DNA of 64,000 nucleotides from the IMG/VR virus record IMGVR_UViG_3300025674_000014; one strand, 5' to 3'. The notes beneath the pieces were generated by a model. That model was not told the origin of the DNA, made no database searches, and saw nothing but the letters and a program-made list of their open reading frames with translations. The stretch is from a virus. Lineage: Duplodnaviria; Caudoviricetes. This document shows positions 2,458 to 63,977 of the stretch, one piece after another. Position numbers and translations under genes: made by a program. Each line of letters opens with the position of its first letter. Positions within the stretch are counted from its first letter, which is position 1.

Positions 2458-2465
2458 TATTTATA
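2458..2465 (-). promoter_or_regulatory. T4-type late promoter TATAAATA
   Basis: Exact TATAAATA on the minus strand, 5 nt before the gp25 ATG. Confidence 0.8.
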
Positions 2466-2490
2466 ACTACCTTTTAATTAGCTTCTGCAG

Positions 2491-2498
2491 CATAAATA
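2491..2498 (+). promoter_or_regulatory. Late promoter variant CATAAATA
   Basis: 5 nt before the GTG at 2504; same spacing as other late motifs. Confidence 0.65.
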
Positions 2499-2503
2499 AT
2501 ATT

Positions 2504-3130
2504 GTGGAAAAGAAATTCAATAAGATTTACGAATCTTACGTATCTAGATTTACCAGAGGTGGTTTTCTTACTGGAGATTTAGTTAAAGTAAGAGATAACT
2601 ACAAATCTACTGAAGGTTATAAACAATTAAGCCCAGAGTATCAGGCCAAGTTAGATGATCTTTTAGCTAGTGATCTTAACTTGCGTGTTTCTGGTATTGA
2701 GAACAAATACCCTTCTAACCAACCTGGTAACACAGATAACTCAAGCGGAGAGTTTTCTATCACTGTATCACAAGAAACAGCTCCTGGTAGGTATGATGGT
2801 TTTTATCAATTTCCTGATGACATCTTCGAACCAGTAGATGTATATCCTAACAGAATGCCAGTACCAGACAGTATGGTACGTCCTAACGGCACTAAAATTG
2901 ACCCAGATACATTAGAGTATGAAGATGAAGAATCTTATGTTGGGTCTAATCCTCTTAAGTCTCAGGTTGAAGCAGGTTATTTACCTGATGCTGAAAAACA
3001 ACCTGCTATGGGTGATGATAGAGAATTACATAATGTCAATGCTAAGACAGATCAGTTTGGTGCACCTTCTCATGATGCTCAAGCAATCGGAGGCGGTAAC
3101 ATGCCTGACACTAGCATTTACTTAAAGTAA
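2504..3130 (+). CDS. Hypothetical late protein, possibly virion-internal
   Basis: 208 aa ORF, late motif upstream, N-terminus MEKKFNKIYESY resembles a capsid-targeting leader. Confidence 0.65.
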   Translation: MEKKFNKIYESYVSRFTRGGFLTGDLVKVRDNYKSTEGYKQLSPEYQAKLDDLLASDLNLRVSGIENKYPSNQPGNTDNSSGEFSITVSQETAPGRYDGFYQFPDDIFEPVDVYPNRMPVPDSMVRPNGTKIDPDTLEYEDEESYVGSNPLKSQVEAGYLPDAEKQPAMGDDRELHNVNAKTDQFGAPSHDAQAIGGGNMPDTSIYLK

Positions 3131-4028
3131 TAAAGCATGCATATGCATTGATTTCTTGATCCATACAAAACGCTGATTTATAGATAAAGTCGTGGCAAGT
3201 AGTAAGCTGCGACTTTTTCTTATCTTCTTGAATGCATGGCAAGTCATCGATGTAATTAAACATCTCTTTAATCAATACTGGGTAATCATTATTAAACACA
3301 TGCTCATTCTTTATCGCAAGCTTTCTGCACTTAAGAACATGTCCATGCTCAATAAGCTTATACAAATCAGCGACAAGTTTGGATACGTTAGAGCTATCAT
3401 CAACTTCAATCTTACCATCGTTTGTAAGCTTTTGAATCGTATTGATGGTCTTACGAAGATCTGGAAAGTTATCCCTAACAATTTGTTTCAAGTCATCTTC
3501 ACTACATACGATATTTTCCTCATTCAATATATGAGCCATGCGTCTGGTTACATCCTCCACGTCATGGGTTATGTTAAATACCTGGCACCTGCTCTGTAAT
3601 GCTGGAATGATTCGATGCTTATAATTTGCAGTAAGAACAAATCGAGTAATTGCACTATACTCTTCCATTACATTACGCAATGCTCTCTGACCATCTTGAG
3701 TCAAACCATCACACTCATCTAAGATAATAACTTTGATAGGAAAGAGACTCTTTGTCTTAGCATAGTTCGTAACCTTACTACGGATAGTATCAATACCATT
3801 CTCATCTGATGCATTGATATATAGGTGATCACATTCAATTAGTTCATTAACAATAATCTTTGCAAGAGTAGTCTTACCAATACCTGGACTACCTACAAGA
3901 AGTACATTTGGAATCTCTCCACTCTCTTTAGCTTTATCAATCAATTGCCTAATTGAATTGCCTTCTTTAAGACAATAATCAGCAATCTGCTTCGGGCGAT
4001 ATTTTTCTACTAATAAGTTATCGAACAT
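3111..4028 (-). CDS. Sliding-clamp loader AAA+ subunit (gp44/RFC-small-like), copy A
   Basis: LVEKYRP RFC box II, Walker A GSPGIGKTT, INASDENG, Walker B IILDECD, SRC motif ALQSRC. Confidence 0.93.
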   Translation of the reverse strand: MFDNLLVEKYRPKQIADYCLKEGNSIRQLIDKAKESGEIPNVLLVGSPGIGKTTLAKIIVNELIECDHLYINASDENGIDTIRSKVTNYAKTKSLFPIKVIILDECDGLTQDGQRALRNVMEEYSAITRFVLTANYKHRIIPALQSRCQVFNITHDVEDVTRRMAHILNEENIVCSEDDLKQIVRDNFPDLRKTINTIQKLTNDGKIEVDDSSNVSKLVADLYKLIEHGHVLKCRKLAIKNEHVFNNDYPVLIKEMFNYIDDLPCIQEDKKKSQLTTCHDFIYKSAFCMDQEINAYACFITLSKC

Positions 4029-4034
4029 ACAACG

Positions 4035-4062
4035 ATGATATATACTATCTATCGCTTTTCAA
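4035..4062 (-). promoter_or_regulatory. Sigma70-type promoter TTGAAA-N16-TATCAT
   Basis: -35 at 4062-4057 and -10 at 4040-4035, 6 nt before the ATG at 4028. Confidence 0.6.
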
Positions 4063-4981
4063 ATAATTTTACCAACTCAAGACAGCAACAAAATGCATTT
4101 ATCTCTTTATCCAATACTTGTGTATTTTGATACAAATAATTAGAGATAGTTATTAGTAGATCTCTTTTGAATTTTTCTGGAAGGTCTTTCTCGTGCGTGT
4201 AATTAAAAAGAAGCTTAAGAAGAGAGTGATACTCACCGTTAAACTTCTCGTCATTATCCGTAAGAAATTGTCTAATGTTCTCAGAAACGCCAGATTCAAT
4301 TCGATCATAGAGGTCGTCAATAAACACCTGGTCTGTTTCCTCTTTGTCAATAGTGAGTCTTCCATTGACTGTATACTTTTGAATGTTGTTAACACATTTT
4401 CTAATATCAGGGTAATCCTTTTTTATCAACTTAATGAAGTAGTCCCTGTTCTCTTCAGTAAGTGTAATGTGTTCATAATTAAGAATAGCACTACATCGTT
4501 TAACGACTTCTAAAATAGGAGGAGTTAAGTCAAAGTTCTGACATCTGCTCTGCAATGCTGGAATGATCTTATGAATGTAATTACATGTTAGAATCCATCT
4601 AGTTGTTCTGCTATACTCTTCAATAGCATTACGTAGAGCTTTTTGAGACTCTTGCAAAAGACCATCACACTCATCTAAAATAATAACGTTAATCTTACCT
4701 TTAGATGGTCTTTCTTTTGCATATGATATAGCTTTCTTACGAATGGATTCTATATCGTTTTCATCTGATGCGTTTATATAAATGTAATCACATTTTATAA
4801 GATCTTTTACGATAATCTTTGCTAAAGAGGTTTTACCTATACCTGGGGGACCAGCAAAGAGAAGGTTTGGAATTTCTTCTTTTTCCTTAAATTGGTTAAA
4901 CACTCGATAATTGTCATCGGTTAAGATGATATCATCGAGTGTTTGTGGTCTATACTTTTCAACAAATAGACTATCGAACAT
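4049..4981 (-). CDS. Sliding-clamp loader AAA+ subunit (gp44/RFC-small-like), copy B
   Basis: Start reassigned to ATG 4981 (MFDSLFVEKYRP, parallel to copy A); GPPGIGKTS, IILDECD, ALQSRC. Confidence 0.93.
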   Translation of the reverse strand: MFDSLFVEKYRPQTLDDIILTDDNYRVFNQFKEKEEIPNLLFAGPPGIGKTSLAKIIVKDLIKCDYIYINASDENDIESIRKKAISYAKERPSKGKINVIILDECDGLLQESQKALRNAIEEYSRTTRWILTCNYIHKIIPALQSRCQNFDLTPPILEVVKRCSAILNYEHITLTEENRDYFIKLIKKDYPDIRKCVNNIQKYTVNGRLTIDKEETDQVFIDDLYDRIESGVSENIRQFLTDNDEKFNGEYHSLLKLLFNYTHEKDLPEKFKRDLLITISNYLYQNTQVLDKEINAFCCCLELVKLFEKR

Positions 4982-4985
4982 ATCA

Positions 4986-5489
4986 TTATTTACTATCAGA
5001 CGAGCCAAATCCATCAGCCCCTCTGTTAGTATCAGACACTTCGTCAGCCCATTCAATAATAGGTTGCAATAATCTATAGACAACTATTTGTGCACAACCT
5101 TTACCTTTTTCGATTACAGCGTCAGTATCGGAAAAGTTATACAACTTAACACCTAGATCACCCCTGTATTGATTATCAATAACACCAAGATGAGGTTGTA
5201 AGCCATGTTTGAAACCTAGACCAGATCGAGGTTCAATTCGAAACCAATAACCAGGAGTAATATCTGCAAGAGTAAGACCGACAGGCACAACTGCACTTCC
5301 ACGAGCTGGAATAGTCGTATCTTCTACAGCAAACAAATCATAACCAGAATCACCAGTCATACATTCTTCATTGTTTACTGTAGGTAGTTTTGCATCATCA
5401 TGCGTCTTCTTAAACTTAACAGTCAATGCTTGTTTATCTACATTAACCCAGTTTGTATTTGATTCATATACATCACACATATCGCTCAT
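4986..5489 (-). CDS. dut: Trimeric dUTPase
   Basis: GDSGYDL, PRSGLG, GVIDNQYRG and RGADGFGSS motifs. Confidence 0.95.
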   Translation of the reverse strand: MSDMCDVYESNTNWVNVDKQALTVKFKKTHDDAKLPTVNNEECMTGDSGYDLFAVEDTTIPARGSAVVPVGLTLADITPGYWFRIEPRSGLGFKHGLQPHLGVIDNQYRGDLGVKLYNFSDTDAVIEKGKGCAQIVVYRLLQPIIEWADEVSDTNRGADGFGSSDSK

Positions 5490-5524
5490 ACAATCATAAT
5501 ATATGTTGTACTATAAAAGTAAAC

Positions 5525-5532
5525 TATAAATA
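5525..5532 (+). promoter_or_regulatory. T4-type late promoter TATAAATA
   Basis: Exact motif 7 nt before ATG 5540. Confidence 0.8.
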
Positions 5533-5539
5533 TTTGGCA

Positions 5540-6016
5540 ATGGACGATATACCAAGTCATGATATAGGTGATTTAGTTGATCAGTTAAAGAATGCTGAAA
5601 AGTATCTTAAGAAACCAGAAAAGGCAGAAGAAGAGTTCAACTTAGATCCTGAAGAGCTTGAAAAGTTTATACTTAACAACGCTGGTAAGCTTGTAAAGAA
5701 ATCTATCGATATGGTAGATGAAGTAAAACAATATGTCGAAACTGCTCCAGAGAGTAGAGATGTATCTAGTTTATCTGAACTGATAAATGCTTCTTCTTCA
5801 GCTATAGAAACTCTTTCAAAAATATTAGTACAAAATAAGAAAGACAAAACTCAGAAAGAAGTTAAACAGATGGATATCGACGGCAAGAAGCAATTAATGC
5901 AAGGTGAGTTTAATGCAAAGGTTATGCTATCAAGAGATGATGTTATGAAAGAGTTATTTGCTAAAGTTGAAAGAGAAGAAAAAGATATTACACCGACACA
6001 GTCCCAAGAGTTGTAA
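5540..6016 (+). CDS. Probable terminase small subunit (gp16-like)
   Basis: Start reassigned to 5540; helical segment LVKKSIDMVDEVKQYVETAPESRDVSSLSELINASSSAIETLSKI matches the gp16 two-helix pattern; late promoter. Confidence 0.6.
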   Translation: MDDIPSHDIGDLVDQLKNAEKYLKKPEKAEEEFNLDPEELEKFILNNAGKLVKKSIDMVDEVKQYVETAPESRDVSSLSELINASSSAIETLSKILVQNKKDKTQKEVKQMDIDGKKQLMQGEFNAKVMLSRDDVMKELFAKVEREEKDITPTQSQEL

Positions 6017-8882: not shown

Positions 8883-10243
8883 TATTCAAACGATTGAGTT
8901 GTTGCTTTTACTACATTATCAGTAACTGTAGCAAATAATAAATTTTTGGTGGTTGCAATCATAGGTTGTAAAGTCATTCTTATTTCATACATATCAGGTA
9001 CTATAGTTTTTAGTTTAGCTGGTATGGAAACATTTTCATTTGTAGATGATATACCACCTAAATCTAAATCCATTAATCTTGTACTACCCCTATAGTTAAC
9101 AACTAAACTCGATACATAACAATAAGGAGCTCTTCTATTACCAGGAATAGTTACATCATATAACACCGGAGGTTCAACTATAATTTTATCTTGTCTTAAA
9201 GGTAAATTTTGATACATTAACAATAATACAAGTTTATAATTGTTTAAAACATCTTCATAAGTTGCAGGTGATGTATTATATAAAGGAAACACCACTTCTA
9301 TTGCTGGTCCTTCTGAAGGATATTGATAGTGTTTAGCTCTTTCAATTTTTGCAGTACCTGCTTGAGAAAGTAACCTACCTGTACCGGCTACCACTTCAGT
9401 AAAACCGGTACCTGAGTTAATTAAATCTATTAAATTACCGGTAATATTTTCAACAGATTCACCAAAACTGTTGTTAATATCTAATACTCTTGAATTAAGG
9501 TAAGGTATTTTATATTGAAACCCTGTTGGGCCTACAAAGTATAATTTTTGATAAGGAAATAAAACAGATTCTAAATCAGGGTTATTATACTTTTTAAATA
9601 TTGCTTGCAAAGTATCAATGTTATTATTAAAAGTAGTTACACCGTTAGCTAATGCTGTACCGGTAGCTGAAAAGAACCCAGATTCATTAGGATTTGGATC
9701 TGCAGAACTAAATTCTCCCCCCGGTACACCTTCAATTCCAGTTGGTGTTACTTTATCTCCTAAAGTTCTTAATCCTTTTTGTACAAAATCAGTAGCAGAA
9801 TTAAAAAAATCAGTTAACGACTTAACTGGTGTACCGTCAAAAATAGATAAAGTGTAAAGAGCTTGAGCAATTAAATTATTAACTAAAAAATATTTTTCTT
9901 TTAAGAAAATATAAGGCGTTTCATCGTTAACATTTCTAAAACCTTCATTTCTATATTCTTCTGCATTTCTACCCATTTTACTAGTTTTAGGAGAAATAGT
10001 CCACATATAGTCATTTAATACATTTACCGTTGTAGTTAAATTATTATTGTTATCTAAATTATCTTTTAAATGATTTCTTATAACACTAAACGGGGTAGGT
10101 AATCCGCTGTTATTGGGGTTAGGTTCTGCTGAAACGGGAGGTTGATACCCTAAACCATATAAGGAATTAGGTATAATTAGAGGTGTATATACCTCACTAT
10201 CTTTAGTTGTATTCGTACCTAAAAATGTATAACTAAGTCCCAT
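8882..10243 (-). CDS. Probable tail-tube initiator/cap (gp48/gp54-like)
   Basis: C-terminal tube fold pattern YQNLP...EPPVLYDVTIPG...CYVSSLVVNY; lies between tape measure and gp53; TTAAATA 6 nt upstream. Confidence 0.55.
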   Translation of the reverse strand: MGLSYTFLGTNTTKDSEVYTPLIIPNSLYGLGYQPPVSAEPNPNNSGLPTPFSVIRNHLKDNLDNNNNLTTTVNVLNDYMWTISPKTSKMGRNAEEYRNEGFRNVNDETPYIFLKEKYFLVNNLIAQALYTLSIFDGTPVKSLTDFFNSATDFVQKGLRTLGDKVTPTGIEGVPGGEFSSADPNPNESGFFSATGTALANGVTTFNNNIDTLQAIFKKYNNPDLESVLFPYQKLYFVGPTGFQYKIPYLNSRVLDINNSFGESVENITGNLIDLINSGTGFTEVVAGTGRLLSQAGTAKIERAKHYQYPSEGPAIEVVFPLYNTSPATYEDVLNNYKLVLLLMYQNLPLRQDKIIVEPPVLYDVTIPGNRRAPYCYVSSLVVNYRGSTRLMDLDLGGISSTNENVSIPAKLKTIVPDMYEIRMTLQPMIATTKNLLFATVTDNVVKATTQSFE

Positions 10244-10252
10244 TATTATTAT

Positions 10253-12163
10253 TTAAGAGTTAACACCACTTCTGTAATCTTTAACATTACTAACTACATT
10301 AAAATAGTTATTGTTAGTGGTTGAAGGAGCTAATACATTATTAGATGTATTCTTTTGCAGCATAGCGGCCATCATTTTAGTTTGTTCGGTTGTTGCTTCT
10401 AATAATTGACTAAAGTCATTTCTTAATTTTAAAAGCGGGTGATCAGGGTTAAATGATTTTTCATCATAAACAGGGTTTACTTGATTTAATAACCCACCGC
10501 GCCCCGTACCTTCAGGTATGTCAGAGGGATAAGGTATATAATTTGAATCTTCAAAAATAGGTGTAATATTTGTATCTTCGGTACCCGGAGTTAATGATTC
10601 TTTTTCAGCTTCTTCTCTTTTTTGATATTCTTCTTCTCTAATTTGTTCTAAATAACTTTGATAAGATTGATAATAATTATCTCTAATTCTTTTACCCATC
10701 TTACCTCCATGATAATATTTACCGGTTTTTAAGGCCCAAGCTTTGTAATCCATTGTTTCGATATCTGGAAATTCATTTTTTATTGTTTCTCTTAATTCAG
10801 CAGATTTTCTTTTATATTTTTCATTTAGTTCTGCATCTGTCTTTCTAGCATCTACTTCGTCTTCAACAGCTGTTATAAATAAACCAAATTCTTCAGCTAA
10901 AAGATCGGAAACTTTACCGAATAAATTTTTAGTTAAATTATAAAAAGGTAACAGTAATGTTTCTTTTAATATAGTCCAACTCATACCTCCCTGAGCTTCG
11001 TCAATAGAAGGAAATACTTCATCACCGTTTAAGAATTTTAACCCCATAACAAATGGGTCATAACTACCAAATAAACTTTCAACAAAAGGAATAAAATTGG
11101 TTAGTGAAGGGTCTTTTTGAAAATCACTATACTGTAAACCTACTTTACCGAAATAACTTTTAACGTTTTGTTGACCTTGTTTTATGTCATACATCCCTTC
11201 TCTGAATATATCGCCAAAAGATTTAAAACCAATAGGTGTGTTTTTTAAATTAGCATAATCAGCTTGAGCATCATCACCCATTGCTTCTGAATTAATTAAC
11301 CAATTTAAAGCATCAATACCTAATCCTATTACAGTACCCACACCCGGAAACATATAAGCAAACCCAGCAGCTATATCTAGAAGACCTTCTATAGTTTTAC
11401 CTTCTTGATTAACTATTTTATCCATTCCTATACCAAGACTAAGTAAGAACCCGATACCTGGCAATTTTCTAAATAACCAACCGCCTACTTTAGCGCCTCC
11501 TTTCAATATAGGATTGAATAACGCTTTAAGAGGTTTTAAAAATGGTTGTAAAAATTTAAACCCTTTTATAGCAGAGAAAAATTTAGTTATTTTTTCCCCT
11601 AATTTTATTTTAGTAAAAAGTTTACCTATACCTTCACTTAACATTGAGGCTATTTTTGGTATAGCACCAGTTAAACCTAACGCAGTTAAAAAAGGTTTTA
11701 AGTTAAAAAATCTTCCTAATGCAGCTCCTATTGCAGGTATACCTATAAATTTTAAAAGTGATGGTAAAATAGGTCCTAATAGACTACCTAACATTCCTAA
11801 CAATCCAGAACCACCACCTTTTCCACCAGATGTTTGATTAGTTATATTATAAGTATTTTCATCTTTAAGCGCTGCAGCAGCTTTTTTAGATATACCAACT
11901 AATGTTACAGGTGTTGGTTTTTCTATTATTTCTCTAGGGGTTTTGCTTGATTGTTCTTTTTTTTCTTTAGTACCTTTAAATTTTTCAGAAATTACATCAG
12001 TATAATTTAAATTTTGTTTTGTAGATTTATCAGCAGTAGAAGTATTATTAGCTATTTTACTTAAAGTTTTTTCTAAATTTTTCTGGAAGTCAAGTTGCTG
12101 TTTAACGAACTTGTTAAACATATCCGCAAATTGAGCAGCAAATATAGTTGACTCACCTGTCAT
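10253..12163 (-). CDS. Tape-measure / gp29-like hub protein
   Basis: Gly/Leu-rich amphipathic helices (LGMLGSLLGPILPSLLKFIG, RKLPGIGFLLSLG), C-terminal TSNNVLAPSTTNNN; position after gp26-like. Confidence 0.65.
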   Translation of the reverse strand: MTGESTIFAAQFADMFNKFVKQQLDFQKNLEKTLSKIANNTSTADKSTKQNLNYTDVISEKFKGTKEKKEQSSKTPREIIEKPTPVTLVGISKKAAAALKDENTYNITNQTSGGKGGGSGLLGMLGSLLGPILPSLLKFIGIPAIGAALGRFFNLKPFLTALGLTGAIPKIASMLSEGIGKLFTKIKLGEKITKFFSAIKGFKFLQPFLKPLKALFNPILKGGAKVGGWLFRKLPGIGFLLSLGIGMDKIVNQEGKTIEGLLDIAAGFAYMFPGVGTVIGLGIDALNWLINSEAMGDDAQADYANLKNTPIGFKSFGDIFREGMYDIKQGQQNVKSYFGKVGLQYSDFQKDPSLTNFIPFVESLFGSYDPFVMGLKFLNGDEVFPSIDEAQGGMSWTILKETLLLPFYNLTKNLFGKVSDLLAEEFGLFITAVEDEVDARKTDAELNEKYKRKSAELRETIKNEFPDIETMDYKAWALKTGKYYHGGKMGKRIRDNYYQSYQSYLEQIREEEYQKREEAEKESLTPGTEDTNITPIFEDSNYIPYPSDIPEGTGRGGLLNQVNPVYDEKSFNPDHPLLKLRNDFSQLLEATTEQTKMMAAMLQKNTSNNVLAPSTTNNNYFNVVSNVKDYRSGVNS

Positions 12164-12169
12164 CTATAT

Positions 12170-12177
12170 TATTTATA
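12170..12177 (-). promoter_or_regulatory. T4-type late promoter TATAAATA
   Basis: Exact motif 6 nt before ATG 12163. Confidence 0.8.
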
Positions 12178-12184: not shown

Positions 12185-12925
12185 TTAAGAGAACAGATCG
12201 TTTGATACGTCTACTGATACACCGTCAACGGTAGTTAAATCTGATTCTATTTGTTTAACTGATTGAATAAAAGATAATATCTTTTTAACAAAATTACCAG
12301 GTAATTGTTCCACAAGTTCTAATTTATCGTAATAATTCATATTACGTAAATTTACTGTAGTATCTTCTATAGTAACTTCATTAATATATTTTAAAATTTC
12401 ACTAGTATAAAGTTCACTAACAATTTCTTGAGTTGAAGTTTTTTTAGTTAACTTTTTAGAAATTTGATTGTTAATTGTTGAGTCATAATTTAGGTCAGGT
12501 ACTTTAACTTTAACTGATAAATCTTTTAGAGATATTTCTTTTTCTTCAAATAAATCTTTATAATCGTATTCAGCTAATTTTTTAATAACCGTATTTACAT
12601 TTACTTTTCCATCTTCATTTTCATAAACATTACCTACGGTAGAAGATCTAAAACTAAGAATTATGCTAGTTCTATCAAAAGTAGTTAGTGAATTTAAATC
12701 TAATTCTTCTTCTGAATTTTCAACAATTATAGTATTGAAGGTATTGTTAAAATTCATCAAACCACTAGCATCTGAAGGCATGCTAGATAGAATGGTTTTT
12801 TGTTGTTTAAGGGTAAAGGGTAAAAACTTTGACTTTTTACCCAATGAGGGGAGGAAGATAGAAAGACTTTTCTTTTTGTTAAGTTCTTTTAGCTTATTTA
12901 AAATTGCTTTACTATCTTCACTCAT
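12185..12925 (-). CDS. Baseplate hub assembly protein (gp26/gp51-like)
   Basis: IFLPSLGKKSKFLPFTLKQQKTIL motif; start set at 12925 because GTAAATA lies 5 nt upstream. Confidence 0.7.
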   Translation of the reverse strand: MSEDSKAILNKLKELNKKKSLSIFLPSLGKKSKFLPFTLKQQKTILSSMPSDASGLMNFNNTFNTIIVENSEEELDLNSLTTFDRTSIILSFRSSTVGNVYENEDGKVNVNTVIKKLAEYDYKDLFEEKEISLKDLSVKVKVPDLNYDSTINNQISKKLTKKTSTQEIVSELYTSEILKYINEVTIEDTTVNLRNMNYYDKLELVEQLPGNFVKKILSFIQSVKQIESDLTTVDGVSVDVSNDLFS

Positions 12926-12933
12926 AAACATAT

Positions 12934-53561: not shown

Positions 53562-53582
53562 ATATTAATTTAAGTTACTAAA

Positions 53583-54332
53583 TTAAACTTTCAATGCTTT
53601 ATCCCAAAGTAGCAAATGTAACCTAGGACTAAAGTTAAAGTGATACTCTTTAGCAAGCTCAGCAACATCTGCTGCAACTCTAATATGTTCTTCACGACTA
53701 CCAGCACAAGGCATCAACCAAACACGACCAGTTGGTATATCAAACTTATCAACATACTCAGTCATAATTTCTTCCATATCACGGTGACTTTGTACTACAA
53801 ACTTAAACCCTGAATTATGCATTGTATGCCAATCGAGCACCTCTTCAATATAACGCTTGCCTTTAGGATCGCCATTTGACTTTAGTTTAGGTGAAGTAGT
53901 AAATGTAGCTTGGAACTCATCTATCCATCGATCTGAAGGATATATAGTTGCATTAGTTTCAAAATCGATACGAGGTACAAAACCCCACTCTTGTTTCAAG
54001 TAATCGATGAACTTAAGAAGTTTAGCTTGCTGGATAAGAGGTTCGCCACCAGTTAGTTTAAGAATAGCACCATTAAATAAATGATCTTTATAACCATTAT
54101 CTTCTAGCATACACCTAATATGGTAAAATGACATCTTATTCTTAATACTCCATGAAATATAACTATCACAACCATATGGTGCATCTTCAGACTTAAACCC
54201 AATACACGTTAGGTTACACATCGACATTCTCATAAACACCGATGGCATGCCTACATACTCACCTTCACCTTCTATAGTATAGAAAATTTTATCATCACTA
54301 AGAAATATAGTCTCATCCTTAAGTTCAATCAT
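53583..54332 (-). CDS. queE: 7-carboxy-7-deazaguanine synthase
   Basis: YTIEGEG...PSVFMRMSMCNLTC-x11-CDS, LTGGEPL, ETNAT, SPRLHLLLW. Confidence 0.9.
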   Translation of the reverse strand: MIELKDETIFLSDDKIFYTIEGEGEYVGMPSVFMRMSMCNLTCIGFKSEDAPYGCDSYISWSIKNKMSFYHIRCMLEDNGYKDHLFNGAILKLTGGEPLIQQAKLLKFIDYLKQEWGFVPRIDFETNATIYPSDRWIDEFQATFTTSPKLKSNGDPKGKRYIEEVLDWHTMHNSGFKFVVQSHRDMEEIMTEYVDKFDIPTGRVWLMPCAGSREEHIRVAADVAELAKEYHFNFSPRLHLLLWDKALKV

Positions 54333-54338
54333 ATTATT

Positions 54339-54366
54339 ATTATAGTATAGACAACTAACTCTTCAA
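54339..54366 (-). promoter_or_regulatory. Sigma70-type promoter TTGAAG-N16-TATAAT
   Basis: -10 ends 6 nt before the queE ATG; overlaps the divergent phoH late promoter region. Confidence 0.65.
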
Positions 54367-54382
54367 GCATAAATACTTGTAT

Positions 54383-55123
54383 ATGGGAAGAAAAAACTCG
54401 CGGTTAGCCGCAATTTTCGAACCGGAATCATTTAATACAAATGATTATGAACAACAAAATTGGGAACTAAACTTTAACATTAAGTCGAAGTTTAAATTTT
54501 CTGAAAAGCATCAAAGGTTTATACAAACCTTAATAGATGAAAAGACGAAAATGGTATTTGCAGATGGGTTTGCAGGTACAGCTAAAACATATTTGTCAGT
54601 TTATGGAGCATTGACATTATTAGAAGCGAGAAAGGTAGAGCAAATTATTTACCTGCGAAGTGTAGTTGAATCAGCTACGCAAAAGATTGGCCATTTGCCA
54701 GGTGAATTAGATCAAAAATTCCAACCTTATTCCTTACCATTAATAGACAAACTTGATGAGTTAGTTTCTAAGACCACTTCAGATAAATTAGTTAAACAAG
54801 AGTATATCAAATGTCTCCCTGTTAATTTCACAAGAGGTTTAACATTTCATAACTCCGTTGTTATAATTGATGAAGCACAAAATCTCACAAGGCAAGAGCT
54901 TGTTACTTTATTAACAAGATGCGGTGAAGAAACAAAGTATGTTATTATTGGTGATACTAACCAAAGTGACATTAACGGTAAATCAGGGTTTAAACCTATC
55001 TTACAGGCATTTGATACCGATAATAGTGTAGTTAACGGTATTCATACATTTAAGTTTGAAAAATCTGAAATTGTAAGAAGCAAGTTACTTAAACACATTG
55101 TTCAGGTATTGGAATCTGTTTGA
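54383..55123 (+). CDS. phoH: PhoH-family ATPase
   Basis: GFAGTAKTYL, IGHLPG, RGLTF, IIDEAQNL, LTRCG, GDTNQSD, IVRS; CATAAATA 7 nt before ATG 54383. Confidence 0.93.
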   Translation: MGRKNSRLAAIFEPESFNTNDYEQQNWELNFNIKSKFKFSEKHQRFIQTLIDEKTKMVFADGFAGTAKTYLSVYGALTLLEARKVEQIIYLRSVVESATQKIGHLPGELDQKFQPYSLPLIDKLDELVSKTTSDKLVKQEYIKCLPVNFTRGLTFHNSVVIIDEAQNLTRQELVTLLTRCGEETKYVIIGDTNQSDINGKSGFKPILQAFDTDNSVVNGIHTFKFEKSEIVRSKLLKHIVQVLESV

Positions 55124-55287: not shown

Positions 55288-55967
55288 CTCATACTATCAC
55301 CACTCTTGGTAGACCAAGAAGTACCACCAAACATATCACCTAAACCTTGTGATACTTTATTTCCAACAGCTGCTGGAATAGAACCATCTGGGTTAATTTT
55401 CAACCCTTCTTTAGTATACTTAGTTTCATCTTTGATTGCTGGTGTATTTTCAGGTGTAATAGGTTGGAATTCATCTTTTTTAATTTCTTCTTTACTTTCT
55501 TCTTCCTTAAAGGTCATTTTCTGTACATGCTTATTAGTATATGTAGCACTATTGCTCTCATGTTCCCAAACTTCAACCTTTTCTACATCACACCTACCTT
55601 CAGTCATTGCTGATACATAGATACTTGCAATATCAAAACACTTCTTAGCAAACATTTCAATACCAACTCCATCATCAATACGAAGATCAATAACACCTTT
55701 ACGATTTAAATCATTAAAGTCATCAAGGAAAGGATCGTGCTTAGAAATAATAGTAGTATGATCGAAGTGTTGTTGTAGTTTTTCTTTTAGCCCTTTAAGG
55801 CCACCAAAATCTACAACCCAGTTATTTTCATCTAGTTCATTACAACTAAACCAAAATTTAGCAGTTAACCTATAACCGTGAAGAAATCTACAATGTGACT
55901 TAGCTTGAGGTTGACGAAACGCACAGCTACCAAGTTCAATTACTTTAGTACTTTCAAAATTAGCCAT
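55284..55967 (-). CDS. queD: 6-carboxy-tetrahydropterin synthase with a C-terminal extension
   Basis: HCRFLHGY, VVDFGGLK, FDHT, VEVWEHESNSA; TTGAAA-N16-TAGTAT ends 5 nt upstream. Confidence 0.88.
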   Translation of the reverse strand: MANFESTKVIELGSCAFRQPQAKSHCRFLHGYRLTAKFWFSCNELDENNWVVDFGGLKGLKEKLQQHFDHTTIISKHDPFLDDFNDLNRKGVIDLRIDDGVGIEMFAKKCFDIASIYVSAMTEGRCDVEKVEVWEHESNSATYTNKHVQKMTFKEEESKEEIKKDEFQPITPENTPAIKDETKYTKEGLKINPDGSIPAAVGNKVSQGLGDMFGGTSWSTKSGDSMR

Positions 55968-55996
55968 ACCTTATACTAAGATATGTTCCGTTTCTT

Positions 55997-56302
55997 TCAA
56001 CTCTTTTTCTTTTTAAACGGTCTAGGACACTTAGTTCCTTTAACATGGGTATGACCACATCTACCGCAATAAGTAGCTTTTTTAGCCTCTAATAAAGCAT
56101 CTTTACTAATATATTGTGAGGCTATTTCATCCATTTTAGATTTACCAGCTTGGTTAAGAGCTATAGCTACTGCTTGTTTCTGAGCTTTATTTTTAGAAGA
56201 AGGTTTACTAGTACCTATTTTACCTTTTTTCTTATAGGATCCCATAAGCTCACTAATGTTATCACCTATAATCTTGTCTGTTTTACCTTTCTTAAGCGGC
56301 AT
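55997..56302 (-). CDS. Small Lys-rich protein
   Basis: MPLKKGK...NISEL...QKQAVAIAL; C-terminal CGRCGH...C. Confidence 0.65.
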
Positions 56303-56741
56303 TTTTTAATACTTTCTTATATAATGTAGTTAAATCTTTATCCGATAGACCACTTTGTTTTAGATATACTTCAATATCTTCAATATCGTTAGTATTCTTT
56401 ATTTGTTCCATAACTTTATTATCTAATTGTTTAGATAATTTTTTAGCAATAAACTTCTTAAACATTTTTACAGCTCCTGGTTTATTAGGTGTTATTACTG
56501 GTTTCTTTACACTAAAAATACCTGGCATTGAACCACCTGGCATTAAAACTTTTAGCAAAGGAGGTATACCACCGACCATTGGTCCACCACAAGCCTCGTT
56601 TGTAAGTTCATGTAAAACAAACCCTTCATAACTTTCACTCTCTTCAAAGCCCTGATTAAGAGTTGGATCTACTTTGAACCTAATATACCTTAACCCTTTG
56701 CTCTTTAAGCACTCGGTTAATATACTGTCAAAGTCTTTCAT
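56292..56741 (-). CDS. Hypothetical late protein
   Basis: TTAAATA 7 nt upstream; leader [10 protein letters not shown]. Confidence 0.6.
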
Positions 56742-56751
56742 ACATTAGTAT

Positions 56752-57819
56752 TTAATCAGATTTGTAATTGATTACGTCAAGTAGGGTTGTATAAAATGGT
56801 TTCTTACTGTTACCATGATAACAAGGTTCACCTTCATGACCGTGATTCCAGTTATCGAACCAAAATAGATTATAACCATGAATTTGAGATATAATACTAT
56901 AATAAGGTTCCTCAGTAAACGGAACTAAATCATGTTCATCAGTAAACCTGTTAAATATTTTCATATATAAAGGTAGTATAACATTATCTAGTTCTTCAAA
57001 TTTACCTCCAAAGAAAGTACCTACTGTCCAGGCAGGGTATTCCTGATTAACATCAGGTGCATTTACACAAGTTTTTATATTGAAAATCTTTTTGTTTGGA
57101 TTATCATTACCCCACCTTCTATTACCTACTTCCCAATCAAATAGTTCTTTAAATATTAAACTTGTTTTTACACCGAAATCTTCCCAATCAGCTTCTGATA
57201 ATCTATCGTTTTGTTGATCTTGGGTGATAAAAAACCAATCTTTATCTTCAAATATACGTTTTATACCGTCAGTAATTTTTTCGTTAAAAATATTATTTTT
57301 ATTTTCAGGCCAAAAATGTGAATCAGGGTATTGTTCGTCAAGTTGGTGTGGGTATACATATTCTGCACCACCTAATGATAAAGGAATTTTACACCATTCA
57401 GATACACCAGCATCAATCCAAAAAACCCTATCACAACCCCATGGGTTATCTTTTGCCATACTACACCATTTTAACTTCCAATGGCAAAGTAATTCATTTC
57501 TTGGTGCATAAATCATTTTACGTTTATTACCTTCATGATCTACATCGTGCCAAATAAATTTGTTTTTAGTTTCTAAAATTTCATATGATCTTGGCCATTC
57601 AAATAAATCTAAACCAATAACTTGAAAATCTTTCCAAAAAGGTTTTAACCATTCGGTTATTTGATCAACCATATGAGGCCAGCAATATAATTGCATTGGC
57701 ATATTAAGCTTAGATAAATTTTTTAAGGAACCTACATATAAAGCCTCGTCATTATCCTTACCACCCATTACCCAATCGGATCTACCATTGTAAACACATG
57801 TAACTAAAACCGGTTTCAT
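56752..57819 (-). CDS. HtrL/WlaTC-like glycan-modifying protein
   Basis: LVTCVY, K...C.MAK.NP, VFWIDAG, GTFFGG, TEE motifs. Confidence 0.65.
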   Translation of the reverse strand: MKPVLVTCVYNGRSDWVMGGKDNDEALYVGSLKNLSKLNMPMQLYCWPHMVDQITEWLKPFWKDFQVIGLDLFEWPRSYEILETKNKFIWHDVDHEGNKRKMIYAPRNELLCHWKLKWCSMAKDNPWGCDRVFWIDAGVSEWCKIPLSLGGAEYVYPHQLDEQYPDSHFWPENKNNIFNEKITDGIKRIFEDKDWFFITQDQQNDRLSEADWEDFGVKTSLIFKELFDWEVGNRRWGNDNPNKKIFNIKTCVNAPDVNQEYPAWTVGTFFGGKFEELDNVILPLYMKIFNRFTDEHDLVPFTEEPYYSIISQIHGYNLFWFDNWNHGHEGEPCYHGNSKKPFYTTLLDVINYKSD

Positions 57820-58400
57820 ATCATTTCGTATTTTAAAAACTCAAAATCCTCTTTATAATAATTGTTTAAAAGATCTAATGTTTCTCTTTTTATCTCACTA
57901 ACTAACTCAGATGTATTTATACTACTCTTATTCTCATGAGGTAAACTTGGAGAGAAATTGTTTGAAGTTGCTAGTAACTCAAAATCTTCCTTTAAATTTT
58001 CAAATCTTAATATCTGACTATAAACTATATTGTTATTAAAATATCTCTTTTGTGGTAAATTATGGTCTGTTATAGCTAAAGGAATTCTGGTAACAAAATT
58101 ATGAAATTTATCTGGTGTAAATTCACCCTCTCTATATATAAACTCAGATATCATTTTTGTATAAGGGTTTCTTACTATGGTAAATTTTTTACTGTTTTTG
58201 TACAATTCTGGGTAATGTTGTTCAATTAAATCTGGAGTAAAATGCTGAGGAGCAAATATTATATTGTTATAACGTTCTTCAGTATAGGTAAAACATTCAT
58301 CTCTATTTTGTTTATCTATTCCAAACTTCTTTTCAATTGAAGAACCACCGGTTTTAGGTATATGTACAAATAGTAAGTTGTAATCTAAAAGGAATGGCAT
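57816..58400 (-). CDS. Sulfotransferase family 2 protein
   Basis: FVHIPKTGGSSIE (5'-PSB), FTIVRNPY (3'-PB), RFENL, YYKEDFEFLKY; TTAAATA 6 nt upstream. Confidence 0.88.
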   Translation of the reverse strand: MPFLLDYNLLFVHIPKTGGSSIEKKFGIDKQNRDECFTYTEERYNNIIFAPQHFTPDLIEQHYPELYKNSKKFTIVRNPYTKMISEFIYREGEFTPDKFHNFVTRIPLAITDHNLPQKRYFNNNIVYSQILRFENLKEDFELLATSNNFSPSLPHENKSSINTSELVSEIKRETLDLLNNYYKEDFEFLKYEMI

Positions 58401-58417
58401 TAAGTTTATTTAAACAG

Positions 58418-58445
58418 TTGAACCTAAAAGTAAATATCCTATTAT
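58418..58445 (+). promoter_or_regulatory. Sigma70-type promoter TTGAAC-N16-TATTAT
   Basis: -10 ends 6 nt before the folE ATG 58452. Confidence 0.65.
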
Positions 58446-58451
58446 TTTAGT

Positions 58452-59108
58452 ATGACTGACGAACAGAGAGTAAAAGAATTTGTACTACCGACGGCTAATA
58501 GTTCGGTAGCATTGACAGATGAACAGCAAAGCATTGTTATTGAAAATGCTGCTAAAGCTTATGAAGCATTCCTAGATGCACTTGGTTTTGATTGGCGTAA
58601 AGACCCTAATAGTGATAATACACCGCATCGTGTAGCTAAGTCTTTCGTTAAAGATCTTATTGCAGGTTGTTATAATGCACCTCCAAAAGTTACTTCGTTT
58701 CCATCTGATGGTTACGATGGTATAGTTGCTCAGACTAATATTCCCGTTAAAAGTCTCTGCAGTCATCATCATCTTGCGTTCACCGGTCGAGCGCATGTTG
58801 CATACATACCTTCACTAGAAGGGCGTGTTATTGGTCTGAGTAAACTAAACCGTATTGTCGAATATTATGCTCGTCGTCCTCAAATTCAGGAAGGTATGAC
58901 AATGCAAATTCATAAAGCTATTGATAAGGTTTGTGAATTGAATAAAGGTGTTGCTGTAGTTATTAAAGCTACCCATACTTGTGCATGTCTTAGGGGTGTT
59001 AAGCATGATGGTTGTTCGATGGTTACTTCTAAACTATCAAAAGACTTTATGGATGATGTTAAGACTCGTAAAGAGTTTTATGACTTTATCCGTATGGCTG
59101 AGTCTTGA
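58452..59108 (+). CDS. folE: GTP cyclohydrolase I
   Basis: TPHRVAK, SLCSHHHLAF, GLSKLNRIV, ARRPQIQE, HTCACLRGV. Confidence 0.96.
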   Translation: MTDEQRVKEFVLPTANSSVALTDEQQSIVIENAAKAYEAFLDALGFDWRKDPNSDNTPHRVAKSFVKDLIAGCYNAPPKVTSFPSDGYDGIVAQTNIPVKSLCSHHHLAFTGRAHVAYIPSLEGRVIGLSKLNRIVEYYARRPQIQEGMTMQIHKAIDKVCELNKGVAVVIKATHTCACLRGVKHDGCSMVTSKLSKDFMDDVKTRKEFYDFIRMAES

Positions 59109-59137
59109 TTCAAAAATTTAGTTGAATAAATAATTCC

Positions 59138-59695
59138 GTGGCTAAGAAAAGTACAGATGATTTAGGTTTTGAAAAGGCTATACTTAAAGTATGTAGTTTA
59201 AGAGAAAAAAATCTTTATGGTCCTGCTTCTAAAGCCGCGGACGATCCTGAAACCGGTATTGTTATTAAACAAAAACCGGCCTTCTTTGTTATTAAGGACT
59301 GTGCTACTATTGCTAAACGATATATGTTTATCATGTGTTACGGTTCCTTAACTGATCCAATTGGGCAACTAAAAGGTAAAGTAAGTGTTGAGGATATTGA
59401 GAATTTTGTATCTAGAAGTCGTAATAAAGCTAATTATGAAACTCGTCAATTACTCAACCTTATTTTTTCTGATATTAATAGTTATATACCTGGTTTAAGA
59501 GAAACTGGTGCTGATGAGTTAGATATTAACTTTGATACTATTGATGAAGAAAATGTATACGGTGATTACGAAGATTTAGGTAATGAACGTATTAAAGAAA
59601 TGGAAAAACAACAGGAGATTCAAAAATCCAAAATCGATTTGAATAATGATCAAGCTGTTGTTGATAAATTAGTTGAAGTATTTGTACTAGACTAA
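59138..59695 (+). CDS. Hypothetical late protein
   Basis: 185 aa; AATAAATA 5 nt before the GTG. Confidence 0.55.
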   Translation: MAKKSTDDLGFEKAILKVCSLREKNLYGPASKAADDPETGIVIKQKPAFFVIKDCATIAKRYMFIMCYGSLTDPIGQLKGKVSVEDIENFVSRSRNKANYETRQLLNLIFSDINSYIPGLRETGADELDINFDTIDEENVYGDYEDLGNERIKEMEKQQEIQKSKIDLNNDQAVVDKLVEVFVLD

Positions 59696-60307: not shown

Positions 60308-60380
60308 AATAATAATTATGGTTATGTTAATATTTATCTACGCAAGTTGATTAATATGGTATTTATTAAATAATATGTAC

Positions 60381-61136
60381 ATGAAGAAACTTATTTTTTC
60401 TGTATTATTGGCTGCCGTTACTACTGCTGGTAACGCGCAGGTTAGTGTTGATGCAGGCTATACCTCTGATTTTACAATCGCTGGTACAGCAAGAGCAAAG
60501 GACACAGCTGTCATTGGAATCACGGGGGCAAAGGCTTTAGGAAAAGGATTTACTCTTTACGGGTTTAATTACTTCTTGCCAACAAATGACGGACGTTCTA
60601 AATCTTATACTGATCATCCAGGTTCGGGTCATCAGCATGTAGATGGTATTAAGAATGCTCTTGAAACTAGTAGTCAAAACCATTTTGGTGTTGGACTTGC
60701 TTATGACGTTAATTCACTCGGTGATTTTTCTTTCACCGCTGACGTTCAAGCTGTTTATCACTTGGTAAACGGTCCTCTTCAGGATTCTTTCCAGTATGGA
60801 ATTGGTGCAACATTTGATAGCCTTCCTTTAATTAGTAAGGTTGCAAGTGTTTCTGTTTACTACATGGAAGATATTGATCTTGAAATGGATGGTTTTCAGA
60901 TTGGTTTGAGTAGAGTCTTTGAAAACGTGTTAGTTGATAACGTTAATTTGACTCCTAAGGCCGGTGTCTATTTGTTTGATAGTTTTGATGCTTATTATGC
61001 TTCATTGAGAGCTGATTATACTAAGTATGCTATCAGACCTTATGTTCAGGTAAGTTATTTTGATAACGACTTGACTGGAGATCTTGCACTTGACAATGAT
61101 GTTCAGTATACGGTCGGTCTTAACTATTCCTTCTAA
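60381..61136 (+). CDS. Outer-membrane beta-barrel (TorF/Gcw_chp-like porin)
   Basis: Signal peptide MKKLIFSVLLAAVTTAGNA, alternating beta-strands, C-terminal YTVGLNYSF BAM signal; TTAAATA 8 nt upstream. Confidence 0.75.
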   Translation: MKKLIFSVLLAAVTTAGNAQVSVDAGYTSDFTIAGTARAKDTAVIGITGAKALGKGFTLYGFNYFLPTNDGRSKSYTDHPGSGHQHVDGIKNALETSSQNHFGVGLAYDVNSLGDFSFTADVQAVYHLVNGPLQDSFQYGIGATFDSLPLISKVASVSVYYMEDIDLEMDGFQIGLSRVFENVLVDNVNLTPKAGVYLFDSFDAYYASLRADYTKYAIRPYVQVSYFDNDLTGDLALDNDVQYTVGLNYSF

Positions 61137-62851: not shown

Positions 62852-62949
62852 TTTCTCTTCTTACCTACACGCTTTTTGGTAACGGTTACTGTCTTGCGTG
62901 TACGAATTCCGTTTTTTGTACTCTCTTTTACTATTTGTCTTTTTCCCAT
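62848..62949 (-). CDS. 33 aa Lys/Arg-rich micro-protein (not in the ORF track)
   Basis: Hand translation MGKRQIVKESTKNGIRTRKTVTVTKKRVGKKRK; GTAAATA 5 nt upstream; TGA overlaps the next ATG. Confidence 0.6.
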   Translation of the reverse strand: MGKRQIVKESTKNGIRTRKTVTVTKKRVGKKRK

Positions 62950-62960
62950 ATTATTATTTA

Positions 62961-63125
62961 CTATTTTTTATTTTTCTTCCAAATTTTACCTTTACGGCAT
63001 CTAACTATAGCGCCTGATTTATATGCAGATGTTTTCTTACCATATACTTTATCAGCACGTGATTTACAACGATCTTCTGATAGTAAGTTAAGTATATCTT
63101 CTATTTTTTTGTTAAAGTTATTCAT
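62961..63125 (-). CDS. 54 aa basic micro-protein (not in the ORF track)
   Basis: Hand translation MNNFNKKIEDILNLLSEDRCKSRADKVYGKKTSAYKSGAIVRCRKGKIWKKNKK; TAATG overlap with the upstream gene. Confidence 0.65.
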   Translation of the reverse strand: MNNFNKKIEDILNLLSEDRCKSRADKVYGKKTSAYKSGAIVRCRKGKIWKKNKK

Positions 63126-63427
63126 TACCAATTTTGACATGAAAGTTTCTTAGCTGTACCGGGTTTTGCAGAAGAACATTTGTGTCTTGCTCTAAAGCTT
63201 TTACGTCTTTTAGGATTACTCTTCTTAATGCGACTATTAGGGTCTCCGTAATGGACCCTTTTGTATCCCTTACCGGAAGGGTTCTTTACACACTTCATAT
63301 ACTTCTTACTTTTAAGGTAAGAGCTAGCTTGTTTAGTAGCTTTAGTGCAACGGCTACCTTTTTTCTCCATAATCTTAACCAATTCAAAGTCTTCGGTAAG
63401 AAAATCACACAATGCATCAAAATCCAT
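63125..63427 (-). CDS. Small basic Cys-containing protein
   Basis: HYGDPNSRIKKSNPKRRKSFRARHKC...SCQNW; leader MDFDALCDFLTE. Confidence 0.7.
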   Translation of the reverse strand: MDFDALCDFLTEDFELVKIMEKKGSRCTKATKQASSYLKSKKYMKCVKNPSGKGYKRVHYGDPNSRIKKSNPKRRKSFRARHKCSSAKPGTAKKLSCQNW

Positions 63428-63432
63428 ACAAT

Positions 63433-63444
63433 TATTTATAAATA
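63433..63444. promoter_or_regulatory. Palindromic bidirectional late promoter TATTTATAAATA
   Basis: Two overlapping TATAAATA boxes, each 5 nt from a divergent ATG (63427 and 63450). Confidence 0.8.
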
Positions 63445-63449
63445 TTAGT

Positions 63450-63977
63450 ATGAATAAAGACGAAAAGAGTTTACAAGAACTCTATGAAGCTACACTTTCA
63501 CCTCTTAACGGTGTAGGGTTAGGTCCTCAAGCTGAAGATTCAGCAGGTGGATTAGGAAGCCCTACTATGACCAAAATAGATGTTCAAGATGTTGAAACAC
63601 CTGAAGATGAAGAAAGGGAACAGATTGACGATCACGAGGTTGATATGGCTAAATCAGAGCTTTATAAATTAGCTGAATACGCCCCTAAGTTACTTGATCT
63701 AATTAAAAATTATGATGAATTAGAAGGATGGGTTCAAGCTAAACTTACCAAAGCAAGTGATTATGTTTCTGATATCTACCACTACCTTAAGTATGAAGAA
63801 GAAGCTAATGTACATAGTCATGAAGTTGATGAAGTGCCTCCTGCCCCTATGGGTGGTTGTGGTGGTCCTGCAGCAGTTGAAGTCGATATTGATGAACAAC
63901 CACCAGGTGAAATGGGTGATGAAGAGAAAAAGGGTGTAAACGACGAAGTTATTAAAATGTTAATGAGTCGTTTCTAA
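63450..63977 (+). CDS. Acidic hypothetical late protein
   Basis: Start 63450 (MNKDEKSLQELYEA); helical core DMAKSELYK...LEGWVQAKLTKASDYV. Confidence 0.65.
   Translation: MNKDEKSLQELYEATLSPLNGVGLGPQAEDSAGGLGSPTMTKIDVQDVETPEDEEREQIDDHEVDMAKSELYKLAEYAPKLLDLIKNYDELEGWVQAKLTKASDYVSDIYHYLKYEEEANVHSHEVDEVPPAPMGGCGGPAAVEVDIDEQPPGEMGDEEKKGVNDEVIKMLMSRF

Follow-up and report, generated by a model that had tools for sequence, protein, structure and literature searches.

Promoter Boxes Placed at Start Codons Suggest Leaderless Gene Expression in a Clade of Distantly T4-Like Aquatic Phages

Promoter Boxes Adjacent to Start Codons

We analyzed a stretch of 64,000 nucleotides (nt) of phage DNA (IMG/VR record IMGVR_UViG_3300025674_000014; the whole stretch is referred to as the window) for two elements found immediately before start codons, namely, a TAAATA box and a sigma70-type promoter. 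Based on their positions, we consider it likely that the genes of this phage clade are expressed without 5' leaders, from T4-type late promoters and sigma70-type early promoters, in combination with translational coupling. This arrangement is unusual for a T4-type phage, and given that ribosome-binding sites are absent, the transcripts very probably lack leaders. Both T4-type late promoters and leaderless mRNAs have been described before, and their clade-wide combination with coupling and without Shine-Dalgarno (SD) sites appears to be new. Targeted searches of the full-text literature, with subscription journals outside the coverage, turned up no T4-like lineage described as having essentially all of its transcription units leaderless and lacking SD sites.

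In the mechanism that we propose, late genes would be preceded by an (A/T)TAAATA box without a -35 element, which the RNA polymerase of the host would read when carrying a gp55-type late sigma factor from the phage. For early genes, the promoter would be of the host sigma70 type (TTGAnn-N16-TAnnnT). In both classes, the box would place the transcription start on, or 1–3 nt before, the A/G of the start codon, and the first cistron of each unit would be translated as a leaderless mRNA. Downstream cistrons, which have neither a promoter nor an SD site, would be translated by termination-reinitiation coupling at overlapping or abutting stop codons. The original prediction, made from the sequence of the window, had described leaderless expression as genome-wide. 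The pattern holds in the 64-kb window and in a complete 209-kb relative, and the claim extends no further.

All 26 starts that had been listed as adjacent to TAAATA have the box as described (the one at 62949 is on the minus strand), as do the nine starts listed for the sigma70-type promoters. We added late sites at 4981, 20751, and 60381, as well as a TAAATG variant at 43735. Altogether, the late box was found at ~30 sites located 5 nt (the mode) to 8 nt from a start codon (Table 1). TAAATA is rarer than chance in the window (103 copies versus 182 ± 14 expected from dinucleotide shuffles), and 25 of these copies are followed at 4–8 nt by the start of an open reading frame (ORF) of at least 60 amino acids (aa). 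The modal spacer of these 25 copies is 5 nt (15 copies), followed by 6 nt (six), 7 nt (three), and 8 nt (one). The corresponding share among hexamers of matched composition and without overlap with the box, including TAATAA, is 0–5%, compared to 24% for TAAATA. The box was found at 26 of the 152 candidate starts and at 10 of the 3130 other ATG/GTG codons (Fisher p = 4e-28). When only the first start of each ORF was considered, 18 genes have a box; in 2000 shuffles of the upstream regions, the corresponding number was 1.2 (at most 6). The positional enrichment over shuffled controls on which the original prediction depended is thus evident.

The late sites share the logo (A/T)TAAATA(T/A)T, in which the two bases 3' of the box are T or A in 25/29 and 27/29 sites, respectively. 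No conserved column was found further upstream, i.e., there is no -35 element. The base corresponding to -13 is unconstrained, as in NATAAATA, the accepted late promoter of T4-like cyanophages. The predicted +1 is a purine in 10 of the 13 sites with a spacer longer than 5 nt, which is a weak signal against a background of ~50%.

The sigma70-type sites are located 5–8 nt before starts with a mode of 6 nt (7 of 12 sites), and the sequence TTGAnn-N16-TAnnnT is present at eight starts. Three sites, either of the early type or with only a -10 element, are newly added (13626, 32613, and 48158). Sigma70-like sites with a 16-bp spacer are not above chance in overall number (21 versus ~23 simulated). 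Among these, 8 of 21 lie 5–8 nt before a start, compared to 3 of 88 sites with spacers of 15, 17, 18, or 19 bp (p = 6e-5). The fixed 16-bp spacer noted previously is thus real in the window, and the complete relative (G002) uses spacers of 15–16 bp, with a modal distance to the start of 6 nt (8 of 14 sites). In sigma70 promoters, the TTGACA-like and TATAAT-like hexamers are ~17 bp apart.

Coupled Genes, Absence of Shine-Dalgarno Sites, and Corrected Starts

The presence of a box depends strongly on the position of a gene relative to its upstream neighbor. A box located 4–9 nt before the start was found in 44 of 48 uncoupled genes, whereas 30 of 32 coupled genes, defined as those overlapping or at most 3 nt from the upstream stop, have none (p = 2e-15). 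Where the box is missing, the start codon overlaps or lies next to the stop codon of the previous gene (ATGA, TAATG, or a gap of ≤3 nt), which fits translational coupling as a second mode of initiation. Among the 16 genes that face a divergent neighbor, 15 have a box at 4–9 nt, and 10 late boxes are found in divergent regions that lack any upstream stop codon. In genes that follow another on the same strand, many late boxes are contained in gaps of 4–21 nt, and in eight late boxes, the TAA also terminates the preceding gene.

The divergent intergenic regions of 22, 27, 48, 50, 50, 51, and 51 bp contain only two boxes and their spacers. For example, the 22-bp region at 63428–63449 consists of a 5-nt spacer, the palindrome TATTTA/TAAATA, and another 5-nt spacer. 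A divergent module of 48–51 bp, in which a late box is located 1–5 nt from the -35 hexamer of an early-type promoter that faces the other way, recurs at 5490–5539, 15224–15271, 54333–54382, and 58401–58451. In these modules, the binding of one form of the polymerase could exclude the other. Early- and late-type elements are packed together in a similar manner in RB49 and S-PM2, which have "middle" expression without MotA. However, the overlapping promoters of those phages serve one gene, while those found here mostly serve two divergent genes.

Consistent with the original prediction, SD sites are essentially absent at starts in the window. Among ~80 genes, a core of GGAG, GAGG, or AGGA was found 4–10 nt before the start only once, and the positional profile is flat. 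The only canonical SD is AAGGAGG at 6886–6892 on the minus strand, 4 nt before the ATG at 6881, in a gene that also has an ATGA overlap with its upstream neighbor. Given this lone site, ribosomes of the host may still have an anti-SD sequence.

The box rule, which had been expected to correct start codons, shifts 10 starts: 5083 to 4981, 5453 to 5540, 12931 to 12925, 13967 to 13925, 15229 to 15223, 20760 to 20751, 45923 to 45905, 54377 to 54383, 60375 to 60381, and 63345 to 63450. When the clamp-loader gene starts at 4981 instead of 5083, its ~100-nt overlap with the dUTPase gene disappears; in the long form, the match to the family profile begins only at residue 33. For the genes starting at 4028, 30971, 54332, and 55967, the profile match starts only a few residues into the protein and a few positions into the profile, which indicates that these box-adjacent starts are right. 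Also, the rule reveals small genes. The 33-aa ORF at 62949, which is shorter than the length cutoff of usual ORF lists, was found via its late box. This ORF (62848–62949, minus strand) has a stop codon that overlaps (ATGA) the ATG at 62851 of an 85-aa gene.

Two Promoter Classes With Different Gene Functions

The two types of boxes follow gene function, as the proposed sorting of genes into early and late classes implies. All eight annotated genes with a sigma70-type promoter are involved in replication or nucleotide metabolism, namely, those for a clamp loader, dUTPase, ThyX, QueE, QueD, GTP cyclohydrolase, an exonuclease, and a helicase. Among the genes of the TAAATA class are those for baseplate wedge, baseplate hub, gp15-like, and holin-family proteins (Fisher p = 0.003 for the functional split).

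TAAATA is avoided inside genes on both strands. In codon shuffles, 68 copies are expected in the sense direction of coding sequences and 29 were found (z = -5.1); in the antisense direction, 84 are expected and 39 were found (z = -5.3). Control hexamers not overlapping the box occur in coding sequences about as often as expected (z from -0.5 to +2.1). Such equal avoidance points to a DNA signal, because an mRNA signal would not be disfavored in antisense, while a promoter firing in both directions would be.

The search for a gp55-type late sigma factor, suggested together with the original prediction, was successful in three relatives of the clade but not in the window. Homologues with 46–50% identity to the gp55 of phage HTVC008M are encoded by G002, G005, and G006; the portal protein of G005 is 80% identical to that of the window. 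The gp55 gene of G002 has an early-type promoter, TTGAAA-N15-TATAAT, 6 nt before its ATG. For gp45, tblastn with the HTVC008M query matched nothing in the window or in G002, probably due to divergence. Taken together, these patterns support the view that the TAAATA boxes behave as T4-type late promoters and TTGAnn-N16-TAnnnT as the early class.

Conservation Among Relatives and Comparison With Known Systems

We found 53 IMG/VR loci encoding a portal 58–100% identical to that of the window. In 27 of these loci, the box spacing peaks at 5 nt (84 sites), followed by 6 nt (36 sites) and 7 nt (21 sites). For orthologous genes with 35–97% protein identity, the upstream sequences diverge while the box and its spacing are kept. 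The orthologues of the gene at 23792 have the box, a 5-nt spacer, and GTG in 10 of 10 distinct upstream regions (46–97% protein identity). In G002, 76 of 318 ORFs have a box at 4–9 nt, 49 of them at 5 nt. An SD core precedes only 13 of these 318 ORFs and has no positional peak. With automatic starts, the promoter-or-coupled pattern of G002 is reproduced only noisily, as the class with neither feature is enlarged by starts that were not curated and by small ORFs that were missed. The portal gene of the window has no box and begins 4 nt after the previous stop; in relatives with portal identity ≤68% (L021–L059), the portal gene has TAAATA 4–9 nt upstream, often with TTGA ~15 nt further up.

For comparison with cultured phages, an identical annotation-free scan was applied to 50-kb late regions of T4, P-SSM2, and HTVC008M. 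In T4, ~27–28 nt separate the late box from the start, and an SD peak is found in between at 5–7 nt, whereas the box in the window is at 5–8 nt with no SD. In P-SSM2, the late box is located 21–25 nt before the start. HTVC008M has an AAGGAG SD in most genes (peak at 6–9 nt) and late boxes mostly ≥18 nt upstream. These differences indicate that the placement of the box at the start is a property of this clade rather than general among marine T4-like phages. A few genes of HTVC008M, the portal of which is only ~33% identical to that of the window, do resemble those of the window. TAAATA with a 5-nt spacer is found at L004:4760, 30559, and 30830, and TTGACA-N17-TAGGAT with a 7-nt spacer is found before L004:48048.

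The late box resembles the T4 late promoters that depend on gp55, gp33, and the gp45 clamp (TATAAATA, an 8-bp box at -13 to -6), as well as NATAAATA of cyanophages, in having a core box, no -35 element, and AT-rich bases downstream. As in other T4-like phages, the late promoters are found before structural genes; gp55 is encoded in the clade, and clamp loaders in the window. For T4, 50 late promoters have been listed (PMC2988020). With 168,903 bp for that genome, the density of late boxes is higher here, at ~30 in 64 kb.

The sigma70-type class shares the exact geometry of leaderless transcription in GeneMarkS-2 group C genomes (Actinobacteria and Deinococcus-Thermus). However, in group C, 25–50% of the transcripts are leaderless and internal genes use SD sites, whereas the phage lacks an SD class altogether and its internal genes rely on coupling by overlap. 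Also unlike group C, one of the promoter types here would depend on a phage sigma factor, and the G+C content is low (31%). In poxviruses, the late promoter/initiator TAAATG has TAAAT fused to the start codon, and late transcripts begin at the ATG. This likeness is only an analogy, because poxviruses are eukaryotic viruses with their own polymerase and poly(A) heads on their transcripts.

Predicted Transcription Starts and Alternative Explanations

The original prediction held that transcripts begin at or next to the start codon, and sequence-level tests support this reading, with the canonical +1 falling on or 1–3 nt from the start. The -10 hexamer of sigma70 promoters occupies -12 to -7. Because this hexamer ends at -7, the modal spacer of 6 nt in the early class places +1 on the start codon. 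The T4 late box is located at -13 to -6, has no -35 element, and is followed by AT-rich bases (PMC2988020). Because this box ends at -6, +1 coincides with the initial base of the start codon at the modal late-class spacer of 5 nt. The modes of the two classes thus differ by the 1 nt that is predicted, which makes packing alone a poor explanation. From these spacings, we infer the actual 5' ends of the transcripts and initiation by the host on a 5'-terminal AUG/GUG.

Several observations weigh against leaderless expression. About one-third of the late sites have spacers of 6–9 nt, corresponding to leaders of 1–4 nt rather than zero; such leaders are too short for a ribosome-binding site. Four or five of the box-adjacent genes begin with GTG, which is a poor leaderless start in Escherichia coli, yet functional in mycobacteria. 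The ability of the host to translate leaderless mRNA efficiently from a 5'-terminal AUG, and in particular from GUG, is assumed. In the window, tblastn found no significant match to gp55. Furthermore, in four metatranscriptome runs examined over 6000–25999, assembled contigs at 19654–19876 and 20994–21320 span boxes. The contigs of these runs are 151–327 nt long, have low depth, and show neither transcript starts nor strand. They indicate that read-through RNA, or DNA in the RNA libraries, exists, and copies of these cistrons in an internal position may also be translated.

Among the alternatives, the one that survives best is still unlikely in our view. The boxes would be real promoters, but their closeness to the starts would reflect only genome compaction. 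Most protein would then come from read-through transcripts via an SD-independent route (AU-rich or S1-dependent binding, or reinitiation over gaps of 8–30 nt), and 5'-terminal copies would contribute little. Consistent with compaction, the genome is 97% coding, many boxes lie in the short same-strand gaps described above, some with a TAA that doubles as a stop codon, and two boxes are crossed by the RNA-library contigs. However, genes facing a divergent neighbor have no same-strand gene upstream and carry the box nonetheless (15 of 16). The avoidance of TAAATA inside genes gives no sign of further promoters upstream, and the difference of 1 nt between the spacing modes of the two classes matches the placement of transcription starts rather than mere packing. 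Also, a spacing of 5–6 nt is kept across relatives despite diverged flanks.

A second alternative is that TAAATA is an AT-rich, non-SD signal for translation initiation on mRNAs with leaders, similar to the A-rich motif of Bacteroidetes (GeneMarkS-2 group B). In group B genomes, this motif is located ~9 nt before starts, including those of internal operon genes (PMC6028130). The distance between TAAATA and the start is similar to that of a ribosome-binding site, and SD sites are absent. Nevertheless, we consider it quite improbable. Only 2 of 32 coupled genes have a box, whereas group B motifs also precede internal genes, and depletion in coding sequences is as strong in antisense as in sense. 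Moreover, TAAATA goes with late functions, early genes have a -35/-10 pair with a fixed spacer instead, and the motif is the T4-family late consensus in a clade that encodes gp55. Finally, chance in AT-rich DNA, with TAA stops followed by AT-rich spacers, would be in keeping with the G+C content of 31% and with the eight boxes that include an upstream stop codon, but it is refuted by the shuffles, the control hexamers, and the Fisher test reported above, as well as by the boxes in divergent regions and the conservation of the pattern across relatives.

Leaderless expression may also be part of a broader change, although we regard this stronger reading as doubtful. The clade would have abandoned SD-led initiation altogether; each promoter would double as a translation-initiation unit through a 5'-terminal AUG or GUG, and the other genes would be coupled from stop to start. 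The sigma switch would then control translation, and SD-dependent initiation by the 30S subunit of the host could be disabled without harm to the phage as part of a takeover. Otherwise, an abundant aquatic host may have an efficient and unrecognized capacity for leaderless translation.

If leaderless expression is correct, the boxes provide a simple annotation rule for starts, small ORFs, and temporal classes in widespread aquatic phages of ~200 kb. Gene callers that expect a ribosome-binding site will misplace such starts. These phages would also be a natural system to study why and how bacteria translate leaderless mRNA and would offer a clue to the translation biology of the host. The HTVC008M genes with matching geometry make the idea testable in a cultured pelagiphage.

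Phage Affiliation and Other Features of the Window

The window has a G+C content of 31% and a coding density of 97%. It encodes a T4-type portal protein that is ~31–33% identical to the gp20 of cyanophages, HTVC008M, and Aeh1. Other structural genes include those for a baseplate wedge, a baseplate hub, and a gp15-like sheath stabilizer. Genes for replication and metabolism include those for two clamp-loader paralogues, a UvsW-like helicase, dUTPase, ThyX, QueE, QueD, GTP cyclohydrolase, and PhoH. At the DNA level, a megablast search with 20 kb of the window matched no relative among phage records. The nearest IMG/VR fragment (94% identity) has a size of 41.8 kb and is rated 20% complete. The more distant G002 is a complete genome of 209,282 bp with terminal repeats. 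Judging from the portal and structural gene set, the completeness rating of the 41.8-kb fragment, and the size of G002, the window comes from an uncultured myovirus of aquatic habitats that is distantly related to T4 and has a genome of ~200 kb. DNA sequencing runs that contain window sequence are labeled as aquatic, freshwater, and lagoon (based on shares of sampled words).

Two host groups appear less likely. The promoter type of Bacteroidetes, TAnnTTTG, does not match the early promoters found here, and a simple assignment to SAR11 would be disfavored by the strong SD use in the SAR11 phage HTVC008M.

Table 1. Promoter boxes located next to start codons in the window. Coordinates cover the element, the spacer, and the start codon; spacer is the distance (nt) between the box and the start codon.
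Element	Spacer	Start	Coordinates	Strand	Gene or remark
Early, TTGAAA-N16-TATCAT	6	ATG 4028	4026..4063	-	Clamp loader
Early, TTTACT-N16-TATTAT	6	ATG 5489	5487..5523	-	dUTPase
Early, extended -10 type TGtTATAAT, no -35	6	ATG 13626	13624..13641	-	Exonuclease; newly added
Early, TTGATT-N16-TATAAT	8	ATG 15223	15221..15259	-	
Early, TTGATT-N15-TATACT	8	ATG 32613	32611..32649	-	UvsW-like helicase; newly added
Early, TTGGTC-N16-TATAAT	6	ATG 35062	35060..35096	-	
Early, TTGAAT-N16-TATAAT	7	ATG 44760	44758..44795	-	Thymidylate synthase, ThyX-type
Early, TTGATT-N15-TAAAAT	6	ATG 48158	48156..48191	-	Nucleotide-sugar epimerase; newly added
Early, TTGAAA-N16-TAAATT	5	ATG 53561	53559..53594	-	
Early, TTGAAG-N16-TATAAT	6	ATG 54332	54330..54366	-	QueE-like; -35 abuts opposite-strand late box of 54383
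Early, TTGAAA-N16-TAGTAT	5	ATG 55967	55965..56000	-	QueD-like
Early, TTGAAC-N16-TATTAT	6	ATG 58452	58418..58454	+	GTP cyclohydrolase
Late, TAAATA 2458-2463	5	ATG 2452	2450..2463	-	Baseplate wedge, gp25-like
Late, 2493-2498	5	GTG 2504	2493..2506	+	Divergent from 2452, 51-bp intergenic region
Late, 4987-4992	5	ATG 4981	4979..4992	-	Second clamp-loader gene, corrected start
Late, 5527-5532	7	ATG 5540	5527..5542	+	
Late, 10250-10255	6	ATG 10243	10241..10255	-	TAA of box is stop of upstream gene
Late, 12170-12175	6	ATG 12163	12161..12175	-	
Late, 12931-12936	5	ATG 12925	12923..12936	-	Baseplate hub
Late, 13931-13936	5	ATG 13925	13923..13936	-	
Late, 14290-14295	5	ATG 14284	14282..14295	-	
Late, 14984-14989	5	ATG 14978	14976..14989	-	
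Late, 15261-15266	5	ATG 15272	15261..15274	+	Holin-family match
Late, 16239-16244	6	ATG 16232	16230..16244	-	Box and spacing conserved in relatives
Late, 19771-19776	7	ATG 19763	19761..19776	-	675-aa protein; conserved in relatives
Late, 20760-20765	8	ATG 20751	20749..20765	-	Newly added
Late, overlapping boxes 21072-21077 and 21076-21081	5 and 9	ATG 21066	21064..21081	-	
Late, 21293-21298	7	ATG 21285	21283..21298	-	68-aa Cys-rich protein
Late, 23798-23803	5	GTG 23792	23790..23803	-	
Late, 30978-30983	6	ATG 30971	30969..30983	-	Tail sheath stabilizer, gp15-like
Late, 42069-42074	6	ATG 42081	42069..42083	+	Inside 27-bp divergent intergenic region
Late, variant TAAATG 43741-43746	5	ATG 43735	43733..43746	-	Newly added, weaker
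Late, 45911-45916	5	GTG 45905	45903..45916	-	Corrected start
Late, 47178-47183	5	ATG 47172	47170..47183	-	
Late, 54370-54375	7	ATG 54383	54370..54385	+	PhoH-like
Late, 56749-56754	7	ATG 56741	56739..56754	-	
Late, 58407-58412	6	ATG 58400	58398..58412	-	Sulfotransferase-like
Late, 59127-59132	5	GTG 59138	59127..59140	+	
Late, 60367-60372	8	ATG 60381	60367..60383	+	Newly added
Late, 62955-62960	5	ATG 62949	62947..62960	-	33-aa Lys/Arg-rich basic ORF
Late, back-to-back boxes 63433-63438 (-) and 63439-63444 (+)		ATG 63427 (-) and ATG 63450 (+)	63425..63452		

In the metatranscriptome runs, RNA-library contigs at 22675–23341 reach a summed depth of 29–157 (<10 elsewhere) and have numerous joints and loose ends. 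Rather than expression, this pile-up probably reflects low-complexity, Thr-rich coding repeats of other organisms that cross-map to the region.

The two gp44-like clamp-loader paralogues (305 and 310 aa) are encoded in tandem on the minus strand at 3111–4981, the downstream gene with an early-type promoter and the upstream gene with a late box. A small subunit resembling gp62 was not recognized. At 53583–59108, the QueE-like, QueD-like, and GTP cyclohydrolase genes each have their own early-type promoter. These genes suggest a pathway for 7-deazaguanine, which may serve to modify DNA.

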